The notes under the pieces: generated by a model
Seen by the model: the letters and a program-made list of their open reading frames with translations, nothing else
What the model was told of the DNA's origin: nothing
The model's database searches: none
In this document: piece after piece, positions 1-9,651 of the stretch
Layout: every line of letters starts with the position of its first letter
Numbering within the stretch: the first letter of the stretch is position 1
Source of the DNA: an uncultured cyanobacterium
GTDB lineage: Bacteria > Cyanobacteriota > Cyanobacteriia > Cyanobacteriales > Cyanobacteriaceae
NCBI GenBank assembly: GCA_963710605.1
Contig: CAVQBA010000006.1
Location: 864,001-928,000 of the forward strand
DNA length: 64,000 bases
Direction of reading: 5' to 3'
Program-made: the position numbers and the translations under genes

Positions 1-3000
1 ACGATCGATCCTAATCTTTTCCGTAACGATACCTATTTTATTCGAGTCTTAAGTTTTGACGTTAATGGTCAAGGTAGAGTAGAAGGTGTAATTCTCAGCA
101 TCGATTCACAAACTAAACCAGGTGAATTTAGTCTTGACTTTACCGATTTAACTGTACCAATTGCAGGAGTACCGATCGAAATTACTCGTAGTTACAGTAG
201 TATCGATGCTAATATTGAAGGTGATTTTGGTTACGGTTGGCAAATTGGTTTGGGTGATGCCAGTATTGTTGAATCTTCCCCCGATGGCAGAGATTTAAGT
301 GATGCTAATAATATTATCTTTAATACTGCTAATACCTTCTCTGTAGGTACAAGAGTCACATTAAACACCCCTGATGGACGTAGAGTTGGCTTTACCTTCG
401 ATCCTGTACTTTCTGGTACTCCATTTTTCTTCGGTACACTTTATACACCTAGTTTTACTGCCGATGCAGGTGTATTTGCTACTTTAGAAGCAGAAGATAG
501 TTTAGATAGTGTGATTATTAAAAGTGATGGTACGGTAGGAGCACCATTGTTTACTTTCTTGGGTTACAATCCCACAATTTACAGATTAACTACCAGAGAT
601 GGTACAGTTTATCGTTACGACCAAAATGAAGGTTTAATTGATATAACCGATCGTAATGGTAATCTGATTACTTACAACGATGATGGTATTGTTAGCTCAA
701 CAGGGGCAGAAATTCAATTTATTCGTGATGCCGAAGGGCAAATTACCGAAATTATCGATCCCGAAGATAAGTCTTTAGTTTATAAATATGATACTCAAGG
801 TAATTTAATTGGTTTTGTCGATCGTGAAGAAAACGAAACTACCTTTAAATACGAAAGCGATATACCCCATTATCTCACCGAAGTTGTCGATCCATTAGGT
901 AGAACAGGTGTTCGTACTGAATATGAAAATGGTCAAATTAGTAAAATCTTTGATGCTGATGGTAATGCCCTCGATATTAACTATGATTCTGCTTCTTCTA
1001 CTCAAACGATAAACGATCCTTTTGGTAATACTACCACTTTAGTCTTTGATGAAAAAGGTAATGTGATTACTCAAATTGATGCTGAGGGAGGTAGAACCGA
1101 AAGAACTTATGATGATGATAATAATGTATTAACCGAAACTGACCCTGAAGATAATACAACCACTTATACTTATGACGATCGAGGTAATATTCTCACAGTA
1201 AAAGATGCCGAAGATAACATCACCACGACTACTTACAATGACAATAATGATATTCTCACCGAAAAAGATGCCGAAGATAATATTACTATCAACAGATATG
1301 ATGAATTTGGTAATCGTCGTGAAAGAGAAGATGCTCAAGGTAATATAACTGAATATGATTATGACGATCGAGGTTTGTTGACTGTTATTACCGATGCTCA
1401 AGACAACGAAATTATTTTTACCTATGATGATTTTGGTTTTGTCAGAAAGTTAGAGTCTCCTGATGGTTCGGAATATACTTTCACCTACGACAATTTAGGT
1501 AACGTTACTTCTGTCACTAACGATTTAGAACAAACCTTTACTTTCACTTACGATGACGAAGGCAGACAAACTAGTGTTACTAATCCTAAAAACGATACAA
1601 GTTTCACTGAATACAACGCCGCAGGAGATGTAATAGTAGAAATTGATGAGTTAGAACGACGTACTGAATTTAATTATAACGATCGAGCTTTATTAATTGA
1701 AACGATTTTCCCTGACAATACTCCTGATGATTTAACTAATAATCCTCGTATCTTAAATAGTTATGACGCATTAGATCGATTAATTACCACTACCGATGAA
1801 TTAGGCAGAATAACCTACTATGAATATGATGCTCTTGGTCGTTTAGTTGAAACCATTTATCCTGATAATACGCCTGAAGATTTGACTGATAATCCCTCAA
1901 TGAAAATGGAGTATTATAGTGATGGCACAATCAAAGCAGAAATTGATGAGTTAGGTAATCGTACCGAATTTGAATACGATAAAGCTAATAATTTAATTTT
2001 GGAAAGAGATGCTTTAGGATTTGAAACCGAATTTGAATACGATAAAGTAGGTAATCAAAGAGCGATAATCGACGCTAATAATCATCGTACCGAATTTGAA
2101 TACGATCGTTTAGGACAATTAGTTAAAACTATCTTTGCTAATAATACCGAAGAAAGACGCTTTTATAACAGTTTAGGTTATCTGATTGAAATAATCGATC
2201 CCGAACAAATGAAAACGATCGATGATGAAAGACTTAGCACTGAATACGAATACGATGCCCTCGGCAGACTAACTAAAGTTATCAATGCCATTGGTGGTGA
2301 AACTGAATACATCCTCGATACGGCAGGTAATATTATCGAACAAATCGATGCTAATGGTAATACAGTTACTTTTGGCTATGACAATTTGAACCAAGTAATT
2401 TCGACTACCTTACCATTACAAAAACTAGAAAATGGACTATTAGTCGATAATACAGCCACCACCACTTATGATAAAGTCGGCAACATTAAAACCATTACTG
2501 ACTATAACGGCGTAGTCACTACCTTTAATTACGATGCCCGTGATATGTTAATCTCTCGTAGTTATTCCGATGACACTCCCACCGAAACCTTTACCTATAC
2601 TCTGACAGGGCAATTAAAAACCGTAACCGACAACCGAGGTACAACTACTTATAACTATGACGAACGAGATCGCTTACTATCCCGTACCGAACCCGATGGA
2701 CGTACCATCTCTTATACTTACGATTCCGCTGGTAATATTCTTACTTTAATTACTGCTTCTGGCACAACTGTTTATACTTATGATGCTCTCAATCGGATTG
2801 ATACGGTTGAATCTGCTGATGGTGGTATTACAGACTATGATTACGATCGAGTTGGTAATTTAATTGAAACTACCTTACCTAATGGTGTCGTCGAAAATCG
2901 TAATTATGATAATCTCGATCGTCTCATCTATCTAGAAAATGTCAATGGTAATAATGTTATTTCTAGTTATGACTATACTCTCGACAATGTTGGTAATCGT

Positions 3001-4110
3001 ACTCGGATTGAGGAAGAAGACGGCAGAATTATAGAATATGAATATGATGCTCTCTATCGTCTCACCAAAGAAACCGTTACCGATCCAGTCAATGGCAACT
3101 ATACGATCGAATATGGTTACGATGCGGTAGGTAATCGCCTCCAGAAGATTGATTCACTCAACGGTACGACTACCTATATCTATGATGATAACGATCGTCT
3201 TCTCAGCGAAACTACGGGGGATGTGGTAACTCAATATCAATATGATGATGCAGGTAATTTGACTAGCGTTATTGTGGATGGAGAAACGACTCAAACCCTA
3301 GAATGGAATGCCAAAGGCGAGTTAACGGCGGTGGAAGTCATTGAAAATGGCGAAACAGGTAGAACAGAGTTTGAATACGACCAGAATGGTGTCCGAGTAG
3401 CGGTTACTGTTGATGGCGAAGAGACTCGTTTCTTAATCGATAACAATCAACAACTGTTTGCTCAAGTAATTGAGGAATATTTAGTTAATGGTGAGGTTAA
3501 CAACTCTTATACTCATGGTTTAGATTTAATTTCTCAAGATGATGGTACAGACAGAGTTTACTATCAAGTAGATGGTTTGGGTAGCACTCGCAATATTACC
3601 GATACTAATGGTGATGTGCTGGTCGAATATACTTTTGATGCTTATGGTAATTTAATTAGTCAGGTTGGCGATAGCGAGAATAATTATTTATTTACTGGTG
3701 AGCAATTTGATAATGAAATAGGCTTACAATATAACCGTGCCAGATATTATGATGCTTCTACAGGAAGGTTTATTTCACGCGATCCTTTTGAAGGGTTTAA
3801 TGATTTACCTGTTAGTTTACATGATTATTTGTATGCTAATGTAAATCCCGTGAATGCGATCGATCCTAGTGGGGAGGTTACTACGTTAGAGTATGCTATT
3901 CTGGCAACTTTGATTGTTGGGAAACAATTTGCTGCTAGCCAATTGTGTCCCACTTTTACATTCGGTGCTGCAACTGCCATAATTGATTTGGCACTTGCAA
4001 TTATTTTCGTTCATTATAAAGTAGCAACAGTGTTAGCTCTTGCCATATCTGGTGTTACATCAAGTTATCTTTTGGGAGCTGGTGCTCTTTGTGCCGGGCT
4101 GAGAAAGTAA
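1..4110 (+). CDS. Giant Rhs/YD-repeat protein (5' part outside window) with Rhs core and 78-aa hydrophobic C-terminal tip
   Basis: Frame +1 is open from base 1 (TIDPNLFRND...FTDLTVPIAGVPIEITRSYSS...GDFGYGW, the motif typical just before Rhs YD repeats). Many YD repeats; core motifs YLFTGEQFD, YNRARYYD..TGRFISRDP and NPVNAIDPSG. Confidence 0.95.
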   Translation, partial: TIDPNLFRNDTYFIRVLSFDVNGQGRVEGVILSIDSQTKPGEFSLDFTDLTVPIAGVPIEITRSYSSIDANIEGDFGYGWQIGLGDASIVESSPDGRDLSDANNIIFNTANTFSVGTRVTLNTPDGRRVGFTFDPVLSGTPFFFGTLYTPSFTADAGVFATLEAEDSLDSVIIKSDGTVGAPLFTFLGYNPTIYRLTTRDGTVYRYDQNEGLIDITDRNGNLITYNDDGIVSSTGAEIQFIRDAEGQITEIIDPEDKSLVYKYDTQGNLIGFVDREENETTFKYESDIPHYLTEVVDPLGRTGVRTEYENGQISKIFDADGNALDINYDSASSTQTINDPFGNTTTLVFDEKGNVITQIDAEGGRTERTYDDDNNVLTETDPEDNTTTYTYDDRGNILTVKDAEDNITTTTYNDNNDILTEKDAEDNITINRYDEFGNRREREDAQGNITEYDYDDRGLLTVITDAQDNEIIFTYDDFGFVRKLESPDGSEYTFTYDNLGNVTSVTNDLEQTFTFTYDDEGRQTSVTNPKNDTSFTEYNAAGDVIVEIDELERRTEFNYNDRALLIETIFPDNTPDDLTNNPRILNSYDALDRLITTTDELGRITYYEYDALGRLVETIYPDNTPEDLTDNPSMKMEYYSDGTIKAEIDELGNRTEFEYDKANNLILERDALGFETEFEYDKVGNQRAIIDANNHRTEFEYDRLGQLVKTIFANNTEERRFYNSLGYLIEIIDPEQMKTIDDERLSTEYEYDALGRLTKVINAIGGETEYILDTAGNIIEQIDANGNTVTFGYDNLNQVISTTLPLQKLENGLLVDNTATTTYDKVGNIKTITDYNGVVTTFNYDARDMLISRSYSDDTPTETFTYTLTGQLKTVTDNRGTTTYNYDERDRLLSRTEPDGRTISYTYDSAGNILTLITASGTTVYTYDALNRIDTVESADGGITDYDYDRVGNLIETTLPNGVVENRNYDNLDRLIYLENVNGNNVISSYDYTLDNVGNRTRIEEEDGRIIEYEYDALYRLTKETVTDPVNGNYTIEYGYDAVGNRLQKIDSLNGTTTYIYDDNDRLLSETTGDVVTQYQYDDAGNLTSVIVDGETTQTLEWNAKGELTAVEVIENGETGRTEFEYDQNGVRVAVTVDGEETRFLIDNNQQLFAQVIEEYLVNGEVNNSYTHGLDLISQDDGTDRVYYQVDGLGSTRNITDTNGDVLVEYTFDAYGNLISQVGDSENNYLFTGEQFDNEIGLQYNRARYYDASTGRFISRDPFEGFNDLPVSLHDYLYANVNPVNAIDPSGEVTTLEYAILATLIVGKQFAASQLCPTFTFGAATAIIDLALAIIFVHYKVATVLALAISGVTSSYLLGAGALCAGLRK

Positions 4111-4284
4111 ACTCGATTGTTATTTACTACAACTTATACTCCAATTAAAAACAATTGTATTGAGTTAATTGAATAAAACTTATGAAGGTCAATAATTCTC
4201 ATAATAATAAACAGGATTAGCACGAGCGTCGATCTTCTAGGGAACGGTTGACAATGGAAGCCCAACACCAATCATAAAATCAAT

Positions 4285-4634
4285 GACGATCGTTCTTTGA
4301 GTTACGGTAGCCTGTCGGGTGTATCGATCGAGTGCGATGCTTTAAATCTCGCTTTCTTGTTCCCCCCTTGAGTAAGGGGGGCTAGGGGGGATCTAGTCTT
4401 ACTTAAAAGTAGGAGCGATCGTTTTATAGGATGTATTGACTGAGTGCGATCCCCCTAAATCCCCCTTCAAAAGGGGGACTTTCTTCTTTCTACTTTTCGG
4501 GTTGTTTATTTAAGTTTTTTCTTTCTCCTTGTTCTTCCCTTATTCAAAGCAGACTTTCCTCTATTCTCTTGTTCCCCCCTTACTTAAGGGGGGTTAGGGG
4601 GGATCTAGTCTTACTTAAAAGTACGATCGATCGT
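4285..4634. repeat. Repeat block R1: C-run/G-run hairpin (REP/boxC-like) cluster
   Basis: Contains TTCCCCCCTT-n-AAGGGGGG-CTAGGGGGGATC and the inverse GATCCCCCTAAATCCCCCTT-n-AAGGGGGAC; aligns by eye to 5196-5578 and 6600-7013. Confidence 0.9.
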
Positions 4635-4699
4635 TTTTATGAAGATGGAGGGCGATTTATTTTATAAGCTAAAATAAACTTAAAAAAGGAAAAGCTATA

Positions 4700-4918
4700 A
4701 TGTCAAACACCCTTCAATTTGGTCAAGTTTTAGAAATGATTGATAATCTTTCCACCGATGAACAGGATGATTTAATTAATATTATTCGACACAGACAAAT
4801 TGAGAAAAGACGAGAAGAAATTGCCCAGAATATTAATCAAGCCCGTCAAGACTATCAACAAGGAAAAGTATTAGGAGGAAACGTTGATGATATTATTGCT
4901 GAATTAAACAATGATTAA
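4700..4918 (+). CDS. Type II antitoxin (small acidic helical protein upstream of a RelE/YafQ toxin)
   Basis: 72 aa; overlaps the toxin ATG; same pattern as 6103-6321 (LS.EEQ..L, G.V.FGSVDD). Confidence 0.8.
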   Translation: MSNTLQFGQVLEMIDNLSTDEQDDLINIIRHRQIEKRREEIAQNINQARQDYQQGKVLGGNVDDIIAELNND

Positions 4919-5195
4919 ATTAATTCTCACCTCATCTTTTAAACGAACTTTCAAAGCGATTATCAAAAGAAAACCATACTTAAAGCCTAAAATCGAATCC
5001 AAACTTAAATTGTTAGCTGAAAATCCTTATAACCCCATATTACGTACTCATAAACTTAAAGGAAAGTTATCAGGGGCTTGAGCTTGTACCGTTGAATATG
5101 ATTGTCGTATTGTATTTTGTTTTGAGCAAAATAAAGACACCTTAGAGGAAGAAATCAATCTAATTGATATTGGAACTCATGATGAAGTCTATTAG
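4911..5195 (+). pseudogene. RelE/YafQ-family mRNA interferase toxin with in-frame TGA at codon 57
   Basis: Manual translation: MIKLILTSSFKRTFK...LRTHKLKGKLSGA*ACTVEYDCRIVF...LIDIGTHDEVY*. TGA at 5079-5081 aligns with W of the paralog (SETWSCS). Confidence 0.88.
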
Positions 5196-5578
5196 TACGA
5201 TCGTCTTTCTTGTTCCCCCTTTACTCAAGGGTGGCAATGGGAAAACCTAGTTTTACTTAAAAGTAGGAGCGATCGTTTTATGGGATGTATTGATTGAGTA
5301 CGATCGCCCTTCAAAAAGGAGACTTTCTTCTGTTTCTTGTTCTTCTCTTACTCAAGGTGGGCAATGGGGTGTATTGACTGAATACGATCCCCCGCTCATC
5401 CCCCTTAAAAAGGGGGACTTTCTACTTTTTATTGATTTGCGTTGTTTATTTAAGTTTCTTCTTTCTTCTTGCTCTCCCCTTATTCAAAGGAGACTTTCCT
5501 CTATTCTCTTGTTCCCCCCTTACTCAAGGGGGGCTAGGGGGATCTAATCTTACTCAAAGGGAGCTAGAGGAGATCTAA
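5196..5578. repeat. Repeat block R2 (hairpin cluster)
   Basis: Colinear with R3 (6600-7013) and R1; shared strings such as TTACTTAAAAGTAGGAGCGATCGTTTTAT and AGACTTTCCTCTATT. Confidence 0.9.
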
Positions 5579-5917
5579 CCCTTCAATAACATCAACAACA
5601 CCCTCTAAATTACGTAAAACATCCTCATTAGTAAACCGAATTACCCTTAATCCATAACCTTCTAAAATTTCCGTTCTTTTTCGATCGTATTCAATAGCCT
5701 CTTCAGTGTAATGCGTCTCTCCATCTACTTCAATTACTAACTTTAACTTAGGGCAATAAAAATCAACAATAAAATTATCGATTGGGCGTTGACGATGTAC
5801 TCTAAATTGAAAAGTTCTTAAATAATCAGACCAAAGTTTTTGCTCCGCTTTAGTCATCTTTTTTCTTAATTCTTTGGCTCTAGCAACAAGGTTTTTGTTA
5901 TATGGTAAATATTGCAC
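5564..5917 (-). CDS. DUF559 (Vsr-like) endonuclease domain protein
   Basis: ARAKELRKKMTKAEQKLW...HRQRPIDNFIVDFYCPKLKLVIEVDGETH...GLRVIRFTNEDV. Confidence 0.92.
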   Translation of the reverse strand: MQYLPYNKNLVARAKELRKKMTKAEQKLWSDYLRTFQFRVHRQRPIDNFIVDFYCPKLKLVIEVDGETHYTEEAIEYDRKRTEILEGYGLRVIRFTNEDVLRNLEGVVDVIEGLDLL

Positions 5918-6102
5918 CTTAGATAAGGGGGGCTTTTTAATTTATTTTATCTTTTGTAATCAGTGTACGATCGATCGTTTTTTCTAAGCATTGAAGAGCG
6001 CTCGTGGTTTGTGGATGAGAAGAGGGCTGAAATTATCGATATTGTCAAGAATTAAATCATGATAAAATACAAGAAATAAAATTTTTCAACAATTGACAAA
6101 AT

Positions 6103-6321
6103 ATGCTCAAAAGCTCATTATTTCAGCAAGCAATCGAAACTGTAGAAAAATTATCTTTAGAAGAACAACAAATACTAATTGAAACGCTTCAAAAAAGACT
6201 TTCTCAAGAACGTAGAACGCTCCTCAATGAAGAAATGAAAGAAGTTCATCAGGAAGTAAAAGAAGGACAAGTAAAATTTGGTTCGGTTGATGACTTTTTA
6301 GAAGAATTAGATCGGCAATGA
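6103..6321 (+). CDS. Type II antitoxin
   Basis: 72 aa, ATGA overlap with the toxin; homologous to 4700-4918. Confidence 0.8.
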   Translation: MLKSSLFQQAIETVEKLSLEEQQILIETLQKRLSQERRTLLNEEMKEVHQEVKEGQVKFGSVDDFLEELDRQ

Positions 6322-6599
6322 AAATAGCTTGGACACCCAAATCAATGAGAGCTTTTAAAAAAATAATTCGCAAGAATCCACAACTAAGAACACTAATTGA
6401 GATAACGTTACGACAATTAGTAAAAGATCCATTTCACCATAGTTTACGCACTCACAAACTTCAGGGTGATTTCTCTGAAACTTGGTCTTGCTCTATTAAT
6501 TACAGCTATAGAATAATTTTTGAATTTATAGAAAGCTCTAATGAAAAAGAAAAAGCAATACTATTAGTTAATTTAGGCTCTCATGATGAAGTTTATTAG
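6318..6599 (+). CDS. RelE/YafQ-family toxin (intact)
   Basis: LRTHKLQG...WSCSINYSYRIIF...LGSHDEVY. Confidence 0.9.
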   Translation: MKIAWTPKSMRAFKKIIRKNPQLRTLIEITLRQLVKDPFHHSLRTHKLQGDFSETWSCSINYSYRIIFEFIESSNEKEKAILLVNLGSHDEVY

Positions 6600-7013
6600 T
6601 ACGATCGTCTTTCATGTTCCCCCCTTACTCAAGGGGGGCTAGGGGGGATCTCGTTTTACTTAAAAGTAGGAGCGATCGTTTTATGAGGTGTATTGACTGA
6701 GTGCGATCGCCCTTCAAAAAGGAGACTTTCTTCTGTTTCTTGTTCCTCTCTTACTCAAGGTGGGCAATGGGGTATATCGATCGAGTGCGATCCCCCTAAA
6801 TCGCCCTTAAATAAGGGGGACTTTCTTGTTTTTACTTATTAGTCTTGTTTACTTAACTTTCTTCTTTCTTCTAATTCTCCTCTTACTCAAAGCAGACTTT
6901 CCTCTATTTTCTTGTTCCCCCCTTATTTAAGGGGGGCAATGGGGGGATCTAATCTTACTCAAGGGGGGCAATGGGGGGATCTAATCTTACTCAAGGGGGC
7001 TAGAGGGAATCTA
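6600..7013. repeat. Repeat block R3 (hairpin cluster)
   Basis: Near copy of R2, with extra tandem GGGGGGCAATGGGGGGATCTAATCTTACTCAA units. Confidence 0.9.
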
Positions 7014-7070
7014 ACCCTTCAATAACATCAACAACACCTTCTAAATTACGTAAAACATCATCATTAGTAA
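7010..7070 (-). pseudogene. 3' fragment of a second DUF559 gene
   Basis: TCTAACCCTTCAATAACATCAACAACACCTTCTAAATTACGTAAAACATCATCATTAGTAAA is nearly identical to 5574-5635. Confidence 0.85.
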
Positions 7071-7152
7071 AAATGCAGAGCATTTAATGGAATCTATTAA
7101 ACAAGTTAAATCAGCAAATAAATCAGTGAAAAAGTAAATTGATTCATCAAAA

Positions 7153-8478
7153 TTAATCAATAAAAACGATCGCATCTTCACCTAAAACGATCGTAATATC
7201 CGAACTTAAATCACCTGTAGAAGAATATTCTAATTCACCAAAACCCAAACTCTTCTGAACTTGTTTGGCTGAAGTGCTATCTCCTTTTTGAACAATAATT
7301 TGTGTAGTTTCAAATCTCGGTAAATTACGCCCACTTTGATAAACATTACGATAACCTTGCTCGGACAAAATCGAAATGAATTTTTGACTTAACTGAGGAT
7401 TATCAGTACTATTTTGTACCGCTATTCGAGAACCTAATGCTAATCTACTATTAGTCGATACTGAGCTACTATCGATAAATTCTTCGATCACATTCGCTTT
7501 TTTGTTTCGATCGATTATCCAATAACTAGCATTGTATTCCCCCGGACGACTTCCACGCCCTGGCAGAGTTAACATTCTTAGATTTTGCTTTTCTAAGCCT
7601 AAAGAAAAACTCGCCAAACCAACAACTTCTGAATTAGTTAAATTAGTATCAATCTCATCTTGTAACACAGACCATATCCTAGGTGTTCTCCAAGCATTTA
7701 AAGGAGACTGTAATTTTTTTTGTAAAGCTTTGAGTAATACTTGTTGTCTTTGTATTCTACCGATATCACCCAAGCCATCACTACGATAACGAACAAATTG
7801 CTCAGCTTTGTTACCATCAAGATTTTGTTTACCTTGTTTTAAATCTATATATAACCCCTGAGTTTTGTCAGTATATTTCATATCAAAAGGCACATATACT
7901 TCAACACCACCGACAGTATCAATTATTTTACTAAAAGCAGTACTCGTTACTCTAATGTATTTATCTACAGTAATTCCGGCAAAATTATTTTCAATCACCT
8001 CAATAGTGTAATCTACACCACCATTGGCATTAGCACTATTAATTTTTTTTAATGTACCCCTAGGGTATCTTACTAAGCTATCTCTAGGGATAGAAAGCAC
8101 TTTGATTGAGGAATCTTTAGGGTTAACTCTGACTAACAACATCGTATCGCTACGCCCAGAAAACTTAAGCTCAGGATTATCTTCAGAATTAGGCACTTGA
8201 TCAATCCCCATTAATAAAATATTAACAGGTCGATCGATATTTCTCATCAACAATCCACTCAAACCTGCTCGTCTGGTATCATTAATTTTTTCTGCCATAA
8301 TCCGTATATCGACGGGTAAAGGAGTTTTTAAAGCAACAGTTGTACCTAAAAATGCCGACACGGCTGCGGTAATGGTAAAACATCCTCCCCAAACAAAACC
8401 TTGAATTAAAGGAGAAGTATTTTTTTTCATCGATGAAAATTTACCTATTTGTTTAGAGTTAATAGACTCACGTGCCAA
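7153..8478 (-). CDS. LCP (LytR-CpsA-Psr) family protein with LytR C-terminal domain
   Basis: NILLMGID, GRSDTMLL, LSIPRDS, KINSANA, FVRYR, GDIGRIQRQQ. Confidence 0.93.
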   Translation of the reverse strand: MARESINSKQIGKFSSMKKNTSPLIQGFVWGGCFTITAAVSAFLGTTVALKTPLPVDIRIMAEKINDTRRAGLSGLLMRNIDRPVNILLMGIDQVPNSEDNPELKFSGRSDTMLLVRVNPKDSSIKVLSIPRDSLVRYPRGTLKKINSANANGGVDYTIEVIENNFAGITVDKYIRVTSTAFSKIIDTVGGVEVYVPFDMKYTDKTQGLYIDLKQGKQNLDGNKAEQFVRYRSDGLGDIGRIQRQQVLLKALQKKLQSPLNAWRTPRIWSVLQDEIDTNLTNSEVVGLASFSLGLEKQNLRMLTLPGRGSRPGEYNASYWIIDRNKKANVIEEFIDSSSVSTNSRLALGSRIAVQNSTDNPQLSQKFISILSEQGYRNVYQSGRNLPRFETTQIIVQKGDSTSAKQVQKSLGFGELEYSSTGDLSSDITIVLGEDAIVFID

Positions 8479-8586
8479 TTTAGTTTCTAAATATTACAAT
8501 TTTTTTTTCGTTTTAACCATTAATATTGATAGCATACTCTTTAGCGTTTTGTGTATAGATCAATCGATTTATTTTTTTATTTAATT

Positions 8587-9651
8587 ATGAGTAAAACATT
8601 TGTTCCTGTAATTTTAGCTGGTGGTAAAGGAGAAAGATTTTGGCCGTTAAGTCGTTTACAACGCCCGAAACAGTTTTTATGTCTTGATGGTAGTGGTGAT
8701 AGTTTATTACAAGCAACAGCCGAGCGATTATTAACTTTAGCTGGTGGCTGGGATAATTTATTGGTGATTACTTCACAAATTTTAGCTGATGGTATTCAAG
8801 CACAATTACCTTCATTACCTTCGTCTAATATTTTAGTTGAACCTATAGGTAAAGATACAGCACCTGCGGTGACATGGGCAAGTTTAGCGATTCAAGAGCG
8901 TTATGGTGATGATGCGATCGCCGGTTTTTTTCCTGCTGATCATTATATTGGTAATCAAGAACAATTTGAAACTATAATCAAAAATGCCACCGATTATGCA
9001 AACCAACAAAAAGCGATCGTCACCTTAGGCATCAAACCAGATTATCCTTCAACTGGTTTTGGTTATATCAAACAAGGCACAAAACAAAATGAGCAAGACG
9101 AATTAGGTATTTACAAAGTCGATCGTTTTACGGAAAAACCAGAGCAAAAAACCGCAATTGAATTTATCGCAGAGGGTAAATACAGTTGGAATAGTGGGAT
9201 GTTTATTTTTCCCGTCGGTACAGTTTTAAAAGAATTAGCCACTTATGCCCCCGAAATATTAACACCTTTACAAGAAAAAGGAAGTACTGCTTATCATGAC
9301 TTAGATAAAATTAGTATTGATTACGCATTGATGGAAAAAACCGATCTAGCTTACGTTATTCCTGCTGACTTTGGCTGGGATGACTTAGGTGACTGGAATG
9401 CCTTAGAAAGACTTTTAAATAGTGATAGCGATGATAATATCGTTATTGGTAATCATGTAGGGTTAGACACTCACAAATCGATTATTCATAATAGCGAAAA
9501 AGAAGAAATTATTATGACGATCGGGTTACAAAATGTAGTGGTGGTCAGGGATGGGAATGCTACTTTAATTGTTGATAAAAGTAACACTCAAGACATAAAA
9601 AAAGCCTTGAAGAGATTACAAGAGAAAAAAGATAGCCAAAAATATCTGTGA
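8587..9651 (+). CDS. manC: Mannose-1-phosphate guanylyltransferase
   Basis: VILAGGKGERFWPLSR..RPKQF, PADH, FTEKP, WNSGMF, SIDYALME, WDDLGDW. The ATG at 8587 is preferred over the GTG at 8551. Confidence 0.92.
   Translation: MSKTFVPVILAGGKGERFWPLSRLQRPKQFLCLDGSGDSLLQATAERLLTLAGGWDNLLVITSQILADGIQAQLPSLPSSNILVEPIGKDTAPAVTWASLAIQERYGDDAIAGFFPADHYIGNQEQFETIIKNATDYANQQKAIVTLGIKPDYPSTGFGYIKQGTKQNEQDELGIYKVDRFTEKPEQKTAIEFIAEGKYSWNSGMFIFPVGTVLKELATYAPEILTPLQEKGSTAYHDLDKISIDYALMEKTDLAYVIPADFGWDDLGDWNALERLLNSDSDDNIVIGNHVGLDTHKSIIHNSEKEEIIMTIGLQNVVVVRDGNATLIVDKSNTQDIKKALKRLQEKKDSQKYL

Follow-up and report, generated by a model that had tools for sequence, protein, structure and literature searches.

A hairpin-repeat cluster with a candidate DUF559 nuclease partner in a cyanobacterial toxin-antitoxin island

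Introduction

A 64,000-nucleotide stretch of DNA from an uncultured cyanobacterium of the family Cyanobacteriaceae (GenBank assembly GCA_963710605.1, contig CAVQBA010000006.1, positions 864,001 to 928,000; G000:C6:864001-928000) carries an array in which three blocks of hairpin repeats, R1 to R3, alternate with two toxin-antitoxin (TA) modules, TA1 and TA2, and with a small gene for a predicted DUF559 nuclease. This whole stretch is referred to as the window, and positions are counted from its start. The locus is a cluster of triplex-motif repeats, with a DUF559 gene as their partner, within an ordinary TA island. In related genomes the hairpin repeats are constant companions of the small DUF559 gene and not of TA genes. 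As a cassette system the locus fails; it is a one-off rearrangement in a decaying TA island. The history towards which we lean is local duplication and deletion within this repeat-rich island, which a module of DUF559 plus repeats would have seeded.

The assembly (G000) comprises 3.93 Mb in 7 contigs, has 33% G+C, and is 85% complete. Open reading frame (ORF) listing, repeat finding, and Pfam and NCBIfam scans give the order Rhs, R1, TA1, R2, DUF559 on the minus strand, TA2, R3, a 3′ fragment of DUF559, and a LytR-CpsA-Psr (LCP) gene. A first-pass annotation made from the sequence alone had proposed the same order for the array behind Rhs, and its coordinates hold against the ORFs, repeats, and domain scans.

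Architecture of the repeat blocks

The R blocks are mosaics of short palindromic repeats, in agreement with the earlier description of them as resembling bacterial interspersed mosaic elements (BIMEs). R1 (about 4294-4650, from repeat finding and self-blastn), R2 (5196-5563), and R3 (6600-6999) are built from intact and decayed units of two types that share one orientation. Type A reads C6-TTACTCAA-G6-CTA-G6-ATC, and type B reads GATC-C5-TAAAT-C5-loop-G5. The Watson-Crick hairpin of a unit is 8 bp long including flanking TT/AA, with a computed folding energy of -8 to -9 kcal/mol (z -1.6 to -2.3). Intact units of R1 occupy 4357-4393 (type A), 4448-4483 (type B), and 4569-4605 (type A), and its left side passes into further decayed units. 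The units of R2 lie at 5210-5246, 5337-5373, 5387-5422, and 5509-5545, and those of R3 at 6614-6650, 6740-6776, 6789-6824, and 6912-6948; R3 also has a tandem slip, in which a 32-nt half-unit recurs across 6933-7001.

R2 and R3 share 86-88% identity, and self-blastn aligns them over 407 columns at 86.5% (E 6e-127). In the same comparison, the end of R together with the adjoining end of DUF559 is 92.4% identical over 119 columns, and R1 aligns with R2 and R3 in two pieces at 84.7-91%. The two DUF559 ends agree at 68 of 72 bases (94.4%). The first-pass annotation had called R2, R3, and the DUF559 ends near-identical, which is overstated for R2 and R3. Whole R blocks are confined to the locus when the 3.93-Mb assembly is searched with blastn, with only subunits of ~35 nt matching elsewhere, and TA1, TA2, and the spacer (5918-6102) likewise match only themselves and local copies.

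A pattern of C4-7, an A/T-rich loop, and G4-7 detects 173 hairpins in 3.93 Mb (0.044 per kb), and the reversed pattern, used as a control, detects 0. The locus is the densest cluster, with 7 intact hairpins in 2.7 kb (2.6 per kb versus 0.044 per kb), well beyond chance. A third block accompanies 145 of the 173 hairpins, in the form of another G-run no more than 7 nt away or, for the opposite strand, a C-run, which gives the layout C-run, loop, G-run, about 3 nt, G-run. Only 13 of the 173 are inside, and in frame with, open frames of at least 300 aa (C4:1056618, C6:686907, C6:687951, C6:820826, and 9 more), and the rest fit mostly intergenic repeats. In one relative (G010, L042 8679-11843), hairpin units are found within a gene for a 1054-aa methyltransferase, where they encode runs such as PPLTKGG.

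Repeats of the BoxC/PIT/TM class, the G/C-rich intrastrand triplex motifs (TM), have been known since the 1990s. Judged by layout, the window repeats belong to this class, with triplex formation putative. The available text of the principal source describes repeats with a pyrimidine stem, a loop, a complementary purine stem, a loop of about 3 nt, and a second purine stem, which are multi-copy, mostly intergenic, cyanobacterial, and located in rearranged variable loci (Holder et al. 2015, NAR, PMC4666352; Hoyne et al. 2000 as cited there); in all of this the window repeats are alike. The same text reports triplex-type motifs as abundant in cyanobacteria and ties them to rearranged E. coli loci and local genome instability, and its authors found no mobility genes near the E. 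coli motif TMECO (PMC4666352). No transposase is known for repeats of this class.

The differences are equally clear. The runs here are 5-7 nt long, versus 8-15 nt for the ITxF stem and 9 nt for the stems of TMECO, whose consensus begins CCCTCNCCC... (PMC4666352, available text). The window sequence departs from the TMECO consensus, and many copies of the window type end in GATC; CGATCG is abundant in the assembly (8449 copies). Because the stems are shorter and the sequence is different, the repeats are placed in the same class by layout and not in TMECO itself. Unlike the published repeats, those of the window form a 300-400-nt mosaic that occurs thrice at one locus, and they bracket a DUF559 gene, a link that goes unreported in the available text of PMC4666352, where the word “endonuclease” occurs 0 times.

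The blocks also differ from one another in a regular way. An 18-mer, GTACGATCGATCGTTTTT, stands upstream of both TA modules, at 4621-4638, where R1 ends in it, and on the plus strand at 5965-5982, and has no third copy in the assembly. The end of R1 aligns with those of R2 and R3 up to the point ...TCTTACTYAAR and then continues straight into the 18-mer. In R2, a 404-nt segment carrying DUF559 (5561-5964, minus strand) separates that point from the second 18-mer copy. Because R1 lacks this segment at the point where R2 is followed by it, R2 is taken as a filled site and R1 as the empty form. Read through this alignment, the locus appears to display three forms of one scaffold: empty (R1), filled (R2), and truncated (R3).

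The DUF559 gene and its hairpin companions

The DUF559 gene of the window (5564-5917, minus strand, 117 aa) is intact and matches PF04480 with 108 bits (cut-off 20.6) over profile positions 2-104 of 109. The closest solved relative of its product is PDB 3hrl (E 4e-15), and the motif D..IE.DG..H is invariant in 32 orthologues. The product is predicted to be a Vsr-like PD-(D/E)xK nuclease. The gene is under purifying selection, with 32 of 38 copies intact and a median dN/dS of 0.15 over 73 pairs. Repeats extend into both of its ends, the final codons falling in a decayed TM unit and a decayed hairpin at 5917-5943 overlapping the start codon. A second small orthologue in the same genome (C7:411831-412158) is 70% identical and broken by one TGA and a frame break; hairpins flank this copy as well, at 128-155 and 29 nt.

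Other genomes repeat this proximity. At the family level, all 14 of the small DUF559 orthologues with at least 57% identity have a hairpin within 160 nt, and 8 have one on both sides. At the order level (81 genomes sampled), a hairpin is present within 220 nt of 22 of the 24 orthologues with at least 55% identity. Among distant DUF559 paralogues, taken as a control, the figure is 2 of 16, and a second control of 19 LCP loci (76.5 kb) contains 0 hairpins. Homologous TA loci of the same family have a hairpin within 220 nt in just 1 of 29 cases, with 2 hairpins in 90 kb. The first-pass annotation had tied its proposal to a genome-wide association of the R repeats with small cargo genes or DUF559; the association with DUF559 is strong, and that with small cargo genes is nil.

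The repeats are inverted around the gene, with a bias in orientation. Upstream of DUF559 the order C-G-G outnumbers C-C-G by 22 to 3, and downstream C-C-G outnumbers C-G-G by 20 to 3, with the downstream unit overlapping the final 9-21 nt of the DUF559 ORF in 12 of 38 loci. Grouped by their flanking ORFs, the 38 loci fall into 26 flank contexts and are therefore not one inherited arrangement. Genomes with an orthologue are also richer in repeats, with a median hairpin count of 55 in 26 genomes that have one versus 3.5 in the 54 that do not (Mann-Whitney p 1.8e-6, uncorrected for kinship), in counts where related genomes are not independent samples. In hairpin-poor genomes the hairpins sit at DUF559: 3 of 3 in G013 (C117:5240-5714), 2 of 3 in G097 (C109:11844-12340), and 3 of 9 in G053 (C101:741-1210). 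At the level of sequence comparison, the general link between repeats and DUF559 is established by these counts. In the full-text literature, with subscription journals and supplements outside the search, no published link of DUF559 to BoxC/PIT/TM repeats was found.

A DUF559 gene of Escherichia coli K-12, ycjD (L154, NC_000913 1351100-1351830), has a TMECO-type motif about 170 nt downstream, at the single locus examined. Its stop codon is spanned by a hairpin, and 23 nt of the gene's 3′ end recur downstream as a perfect copy. Duplication of the DUF559 3′ end was considered as a general signature and rejected, as it occurs in 2 of 38 cyanobacterial loci plus E. coli. The copies concerned are those of this window, of L144 (weak), and of the 23-nt piece by ycjD, while L131 has a copy of the 5′ end instead.

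Clusters of repetitive extragenic palindromes (REPs) and BIMEs reportedly occur with RAYT, an IS200-like Y1 transposase, in work that Bertels and Rainey are said to have published in 2011. In the available text of another source, short palindromic repeats are found solo or in mosaic clusters, a small gene is bracketed by inverted repeat copies, and repeat abundance tracks the presence of the gene (Di Nocera et al. 2013, PMC3733652), all of which resembles the arrangement described here. The gene of the window is unlike RAYT in being a PD-(D/E)xK/Vsr-like DUF559 gene and not a Y1 transposase gene, and its repeats lack the GTAG/CGTC tag. RAYT was rejected as the partner of these hairpins, with the 12 Y1 matches in the assembly located 1.5-149 kb from the nearest hairpin. 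The RAYT-like Y1 genes of this genome (C4:589734-590102, C2:30920-31282, and C1:347913-348083; about 186-190 aa, weak scores) are flanked by their own GTAG-tagged palindromes and constitute a separate REP/RAYT system.

Toxin-antitoxin modules

Both TA modules have the layout of type II systems, with a small antitoxin gene upstream of, and overlapping, the toxin gene. In TA1, the antitoxin gene (4700-4918, plus strand, 72 aa) overlaps by 8 nt a broken RelE/YafQ-like toxin gene (4911-5195, plus strand), which matches PF15738 with 38 bits when its TGA is read as W. In TA2, the overlap is 4 nt between an antitoxin gene of 72 aa (6103-6321, plus strand) and an intact RelE/YafQ-like toxin gene of 93 aa (6318-6599, plus strand), the latter matching PF15738 with 30.2 bits (cut-off 30) and TIGR02385 with 38.6 (cut-off 27.9). 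Both toxins match YafQ/RelE/ParE models, and neither antitoxin matches a Pfam or NCBIfam family. The modules resemble type II TA islands of the RelE/YafQ/ParE kind in their two-gene operons, overlapping genes, multiple copies, patchy distribution, and frequent decay. The genes themselves are ordinary, and the only departure is that the antitoxins are without a model match.

The TA1 toxin gene is interrupted by an in-frame TGA at 5079-5081, in a conserved Trp codon. Five orthologues of this toxin have TGG in four cases and TAG in one (G006) at the same codon. Recoding was rejected as an explanation on the strength of these codons, and the occurrence of TGG, TAG, and TGA at one Trp codon therefore suggests independent nonsense mutations. 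The toxin family has 43 matches in 12 of 20 family genomes, 6 of them in G000. Since 13 of the 43 matches contain internal stops, toxin inactivation recurs in the family.

TA1 and TA2 are 58-63% identical in DNA, against 43 +/- 7% for a shuffled control. The antitoxins share 22 of 72 residues (31%) and the toxins 37 of 93 (40%), so that the modules are as distantly related as the first-pass annotation had supposed. For the TA2 toxin, 24 other toxin genes are closer (41-69% identity) than the TA1 toxin, which ranks 26 of 43. Four species from other genera carry TA1 relatives (86-87% DNA identity), where the orthologues are without R flanks and the homology stops within about 20 nt of the gene ends, and TA2 has a relative with 76% DNA identity in G013. 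TA1 and TA2 are not sister genes, but, to judge from these identities, separate lineages of a multi-copy RelE/YafQ-like family. In the genomes that hold the TA relatives, the LCP protein is only 55-64% identical, and the TA modules were therefore moved horizontally or acquired separately.

The flanks of TA1 and TA2 are much more alike than the TA genes themselves, which is why the locus is not explained by a single, simple duplication of the entire unit in tandem in recent times, as the first-pass annotation had also argued of a simple duplication. A more elaborate version of this idea, and an improbable one, is that an R-TA unit was duplicated in tandem long ago, with the TA genes then diverging and gene conversion keeping R alike in concerted evolution. 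It would account for the flanks shared by both modules and for TA genes that are equal in length and in register with a 1403-nt repeat period, although equal lengths are typical of TA genes in this family and by themselves produce such register. Repeats of the BoxC/PIT/TM class are moreover reported to be recombination-prone (PMC4666352, available text). The difficulty lies with the genes: each of TA1 and TA2 is far closer to genes in other genera than to the other, because of which the duplication would have to predate the family, and the array is absent downstream of LCP in the relatives searched (0 of 5 loci).

Next to the LCP gene are remains of a third module. Positions 7072-7137 (plus strand) have matches of 75-78% in G014 and G012, to sequence that forms the 3′ end of a phd/yefM-type antitoxin gene; the ORF concerned is YefM-like and 99 aa long, and the start codon of a toxin gene comes after it. 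In the window, a few bases of the start of the toxin gene follow the yefM remnant, just before the LCP stop codon. Because of this match, a third TA module is considered to be reduced to a stub.

Origin of the array

Sequence comparison establishes the anatomy of the locus, the identities between its parts, the uniqueness of R, and the separate ancestry of TA1 and TA2. On the history that we lean towards, the interval between Rhs and LCP would be a small, decaying accessory island holding three separately acquired type II TA modules: TA1 with its nonsense-mutated toxin, the intact TA2, and the yefM-type stub. Three-block GC hairpin repeats of the BoxC/PIT/TM class, travelling with a small DUF559 gene, would invade and rearrange the island and accumulate into the locus-specific mosaic R. 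A piece of about 490 bp, comprising R and the adjoining 3′ end of DUF559, would then have been copied locally. One junction would lie in CTCATGATGAAGTNTATTAG, a conserved 20-nt stretch with which all toxin genes of the TA family end, and the other would be an illegitimate join within DUF559 to the yefM stub. R1 would be a third copy of R, without the DUF559 segment.

The two junctions are visible in the alignments. On the left, the R2/R3 repeat begins with the final 20 nt of the toxin genes, which are conserved in both lineages and in their orthologues; TA2 tracks its orthologue in G013 up to these last 20 nt, and past the stop codon it tracks TA1 and R2. At the right junction, the DUF559 codon 24 from the end is joined to the yefM 3′ fragment. 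The second DUF559 copy (7000-7071, minus strand) retains only the 3′-terminal 72 nt, is cut off at 7071/7072, and is fused to the yefM remnant. This fragment is nearest to the resident gene, at 94% versus about 80% for other genomes. The repeats would most plausibly be where the copying took place, through recombination, break repair, or slippage. Short homology could prime a crossover or break repair, which together with slippage could build the array, and the look of a scaffold with cargo would arise without dedicated cassette machinery. The DUF559 protein, as a predicted nuclease, may act on the repeats.

The same junctions bear on whether R and DUF559 are instead a mobile element. Such an element would be about 790 nt long (5196-5982) and would have inserted three times independently beside TA genes that were already neighbours: R2::DUF559 would be the full form, R1 an internally deleted form with both ends kept, like a MITE (a miniature inverted-repeat transposable element), and R3::DUF559′ a form truncated by a later deletion into yefM. 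R1 and R2 do share both ends and are set apart at a single point by a clean 404-nt segment with DUF559, and the 18-mer of the right end occurs at no other place. Divergence is much the same among the three R copies (85-91% identity), and DUF559 units occur in their 26 contexts over 38 loci as well as among TA cassettes in G010. However, R has no further copy in the assembly, the 404-nt segment shows neither a target-site duplication nor a terminal inverted repeat at its ends, and the left side of R1 has no crisp end. R2 and R3 also start exactly after a toxin stop codon, for which a crossover in the conserved 20 nt is simpler. We therefore regard three insertions of a mobile element as unlikely.

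Several observations weigh against local duplication and deletion as the origin of the array and against the role that it gives to DUF559. With differences of 9-16% between the R copies, the copying is not of recent date, and a single copying event and repeated gene conversion would look alike. The TA modules have both flanks in common, the 18-mer upstream and R downstream; since shared arms are the pattern expected of cassette replacement, the cassette idea is weakened only. Relatives carry true repeat-bounded TA cassette arrays, with a different boundary repeat. The uniqueness of R holds for the assembled part of a genome whose assembly is 85% complete. The hairpin pattern was drawn up from this locus and may overlook variants; by this pattern, 2 of the 24 order-level DUF559 orthologues are without a nearby hairpin, and at least 10 of the 54 genomes without a close DUF559 orthologue still have more than 50 hairpins.

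A wider possibility can be offered tentatively, with clearly less confidence than the local history. DUF559 may be the long-missing enzyme partner of BoxC/PIT/TM repeats, such that a unit of repeat, DUF559, and inverted repeat seeds a genome and solo repeats spread from it. Repair of breaks at the repeats would copy neighboring DNA and thereby assemble and reshuffle arrays of small genes, TA modules among them. The locus would then capture this process in three states: empty at R1, filled at R2, and truncated at R3.

Cassette systems

Integrons and CALINs contain small genes parted by structured repeats. The window array resembles them in having structured repeats between small genes and, like CALINs, no integrase beside it. 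Unlike them, it has no attC-like single sites that could be identified (no attC model was applied), and its R blocks are 300-400-nt mosaics versus sites of 60-140 nt. The repeats do not occur with other cargo, the cargo consists of ordinary TA operons, one of them decayed, and DUF559 is on the opposite strand.

The first-pass annotation had inferred an integron-like scaffold with exchangeable TA cargo. This part of it is not supported, as R is unique to the locus, 1 of 29 TA loci has a hairpin, and the TA1 orthologues are without R flanks. A dedicated integron- or CALIN-like system, with R as recombination sites, TA modules as cargo, and a recombinase encoded elsewhere, is accordingly very improbable. 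Its appeal comes from the conserved arms that flank each of two different TA modules, from TA1 homology that ends close to the gene ends as in a discrete module, and from the TA arrays of relatives, which are bounded by a repeated 125-nt methyltransferase gene end. The boundary repeat of those arrays is nevertheless absent from G000, R blocks are mosaics and not single sites, and R is found at no other place. Nor are hairpins associated with the TA family elsewhere. The cassettes number just two and a half, and the toxin of one is broken. Tyrosine recombinases (PF00589) have 8 matches in G000, none of them on contig C6.

In the real cassette arrays of relatives, each of several small cassettes is preceded by a copy of a 3′-terminal piece, about 125 nt long, of a DNA methyltransferase gene, and these boundary copies are 88-96% identical across genera. 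Array sites are L042 (G010:C1:3480000-3496000) at 5260-8136, G013:C1, G004:C1:2105840-2106532, G015:C97, and G012:C67. The cassettes encode HicA/HicB (twice), a PIN toxin with its antitoxin, a RelB-like pair, and a 75-aa ORF, and one is a unit of DUF559 plus repeats. A 23-nt core of the boundary occurs at 20 sites in 8 of 20 family genomes and at none in G000. A 47-nt piece of the boundary also precedes a HicAB cassette away from any methyltransferase.

Borders of the island

The Rhs-family gene (1-4110, plus strand; PF05593, and TIGR03696 with 59.7 bits) begins beyond the window. The RHS repeat-associated core stops near position 3880, and a hydrophobic C-terminal tip of ~78 aa then ends the protein. 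No convincing immunity ORF appears in the ORF listing between Rhs and R1, where the sole candidate is a 45-aa ORF on the minus strand (4134-4271). An array of Rhs orphan toxins and immunity genes was considered and rejected, with no rhs core fragments downstream in 3000-9000 and only weak matches of 24-30 nt at 70-71%.

The LCP gene (7153-8478, minus strand) is the conserved right border of the island. Its closest match in the genomes searched is 64% identical, with no close strain among them, and 36 loci with an LCP relative on metagenome contigs are at best 55% identical, again with no close strain. The ManC-LCP neighborhood is kept in G001 and G009. Downstream of LCP in relatives, homologues of Rhs, TA, or DUF559 were found in 0 of 5 loci. 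An Rfam search over 4000-7300 gave no match above threshold, with two RAGATH-25 matches at 17-21 bits versus a gathering score of 49.

Significance of the DUF559 link

The repeats of the window bracket a conserved DUF559 gene in a fixed inverted orientation and in many contexts within one cyanobacterial order, which makes the gene a candidate partner of the repeats. Repeat-poor genomes, in which the few copies present sit at the DUF559 gene, also point to a partner role. The link matters because repeats of the BoxC/PIT/TM class are tied to genome instability, yet to our knowledge have no known origin or mobilising enzyme.

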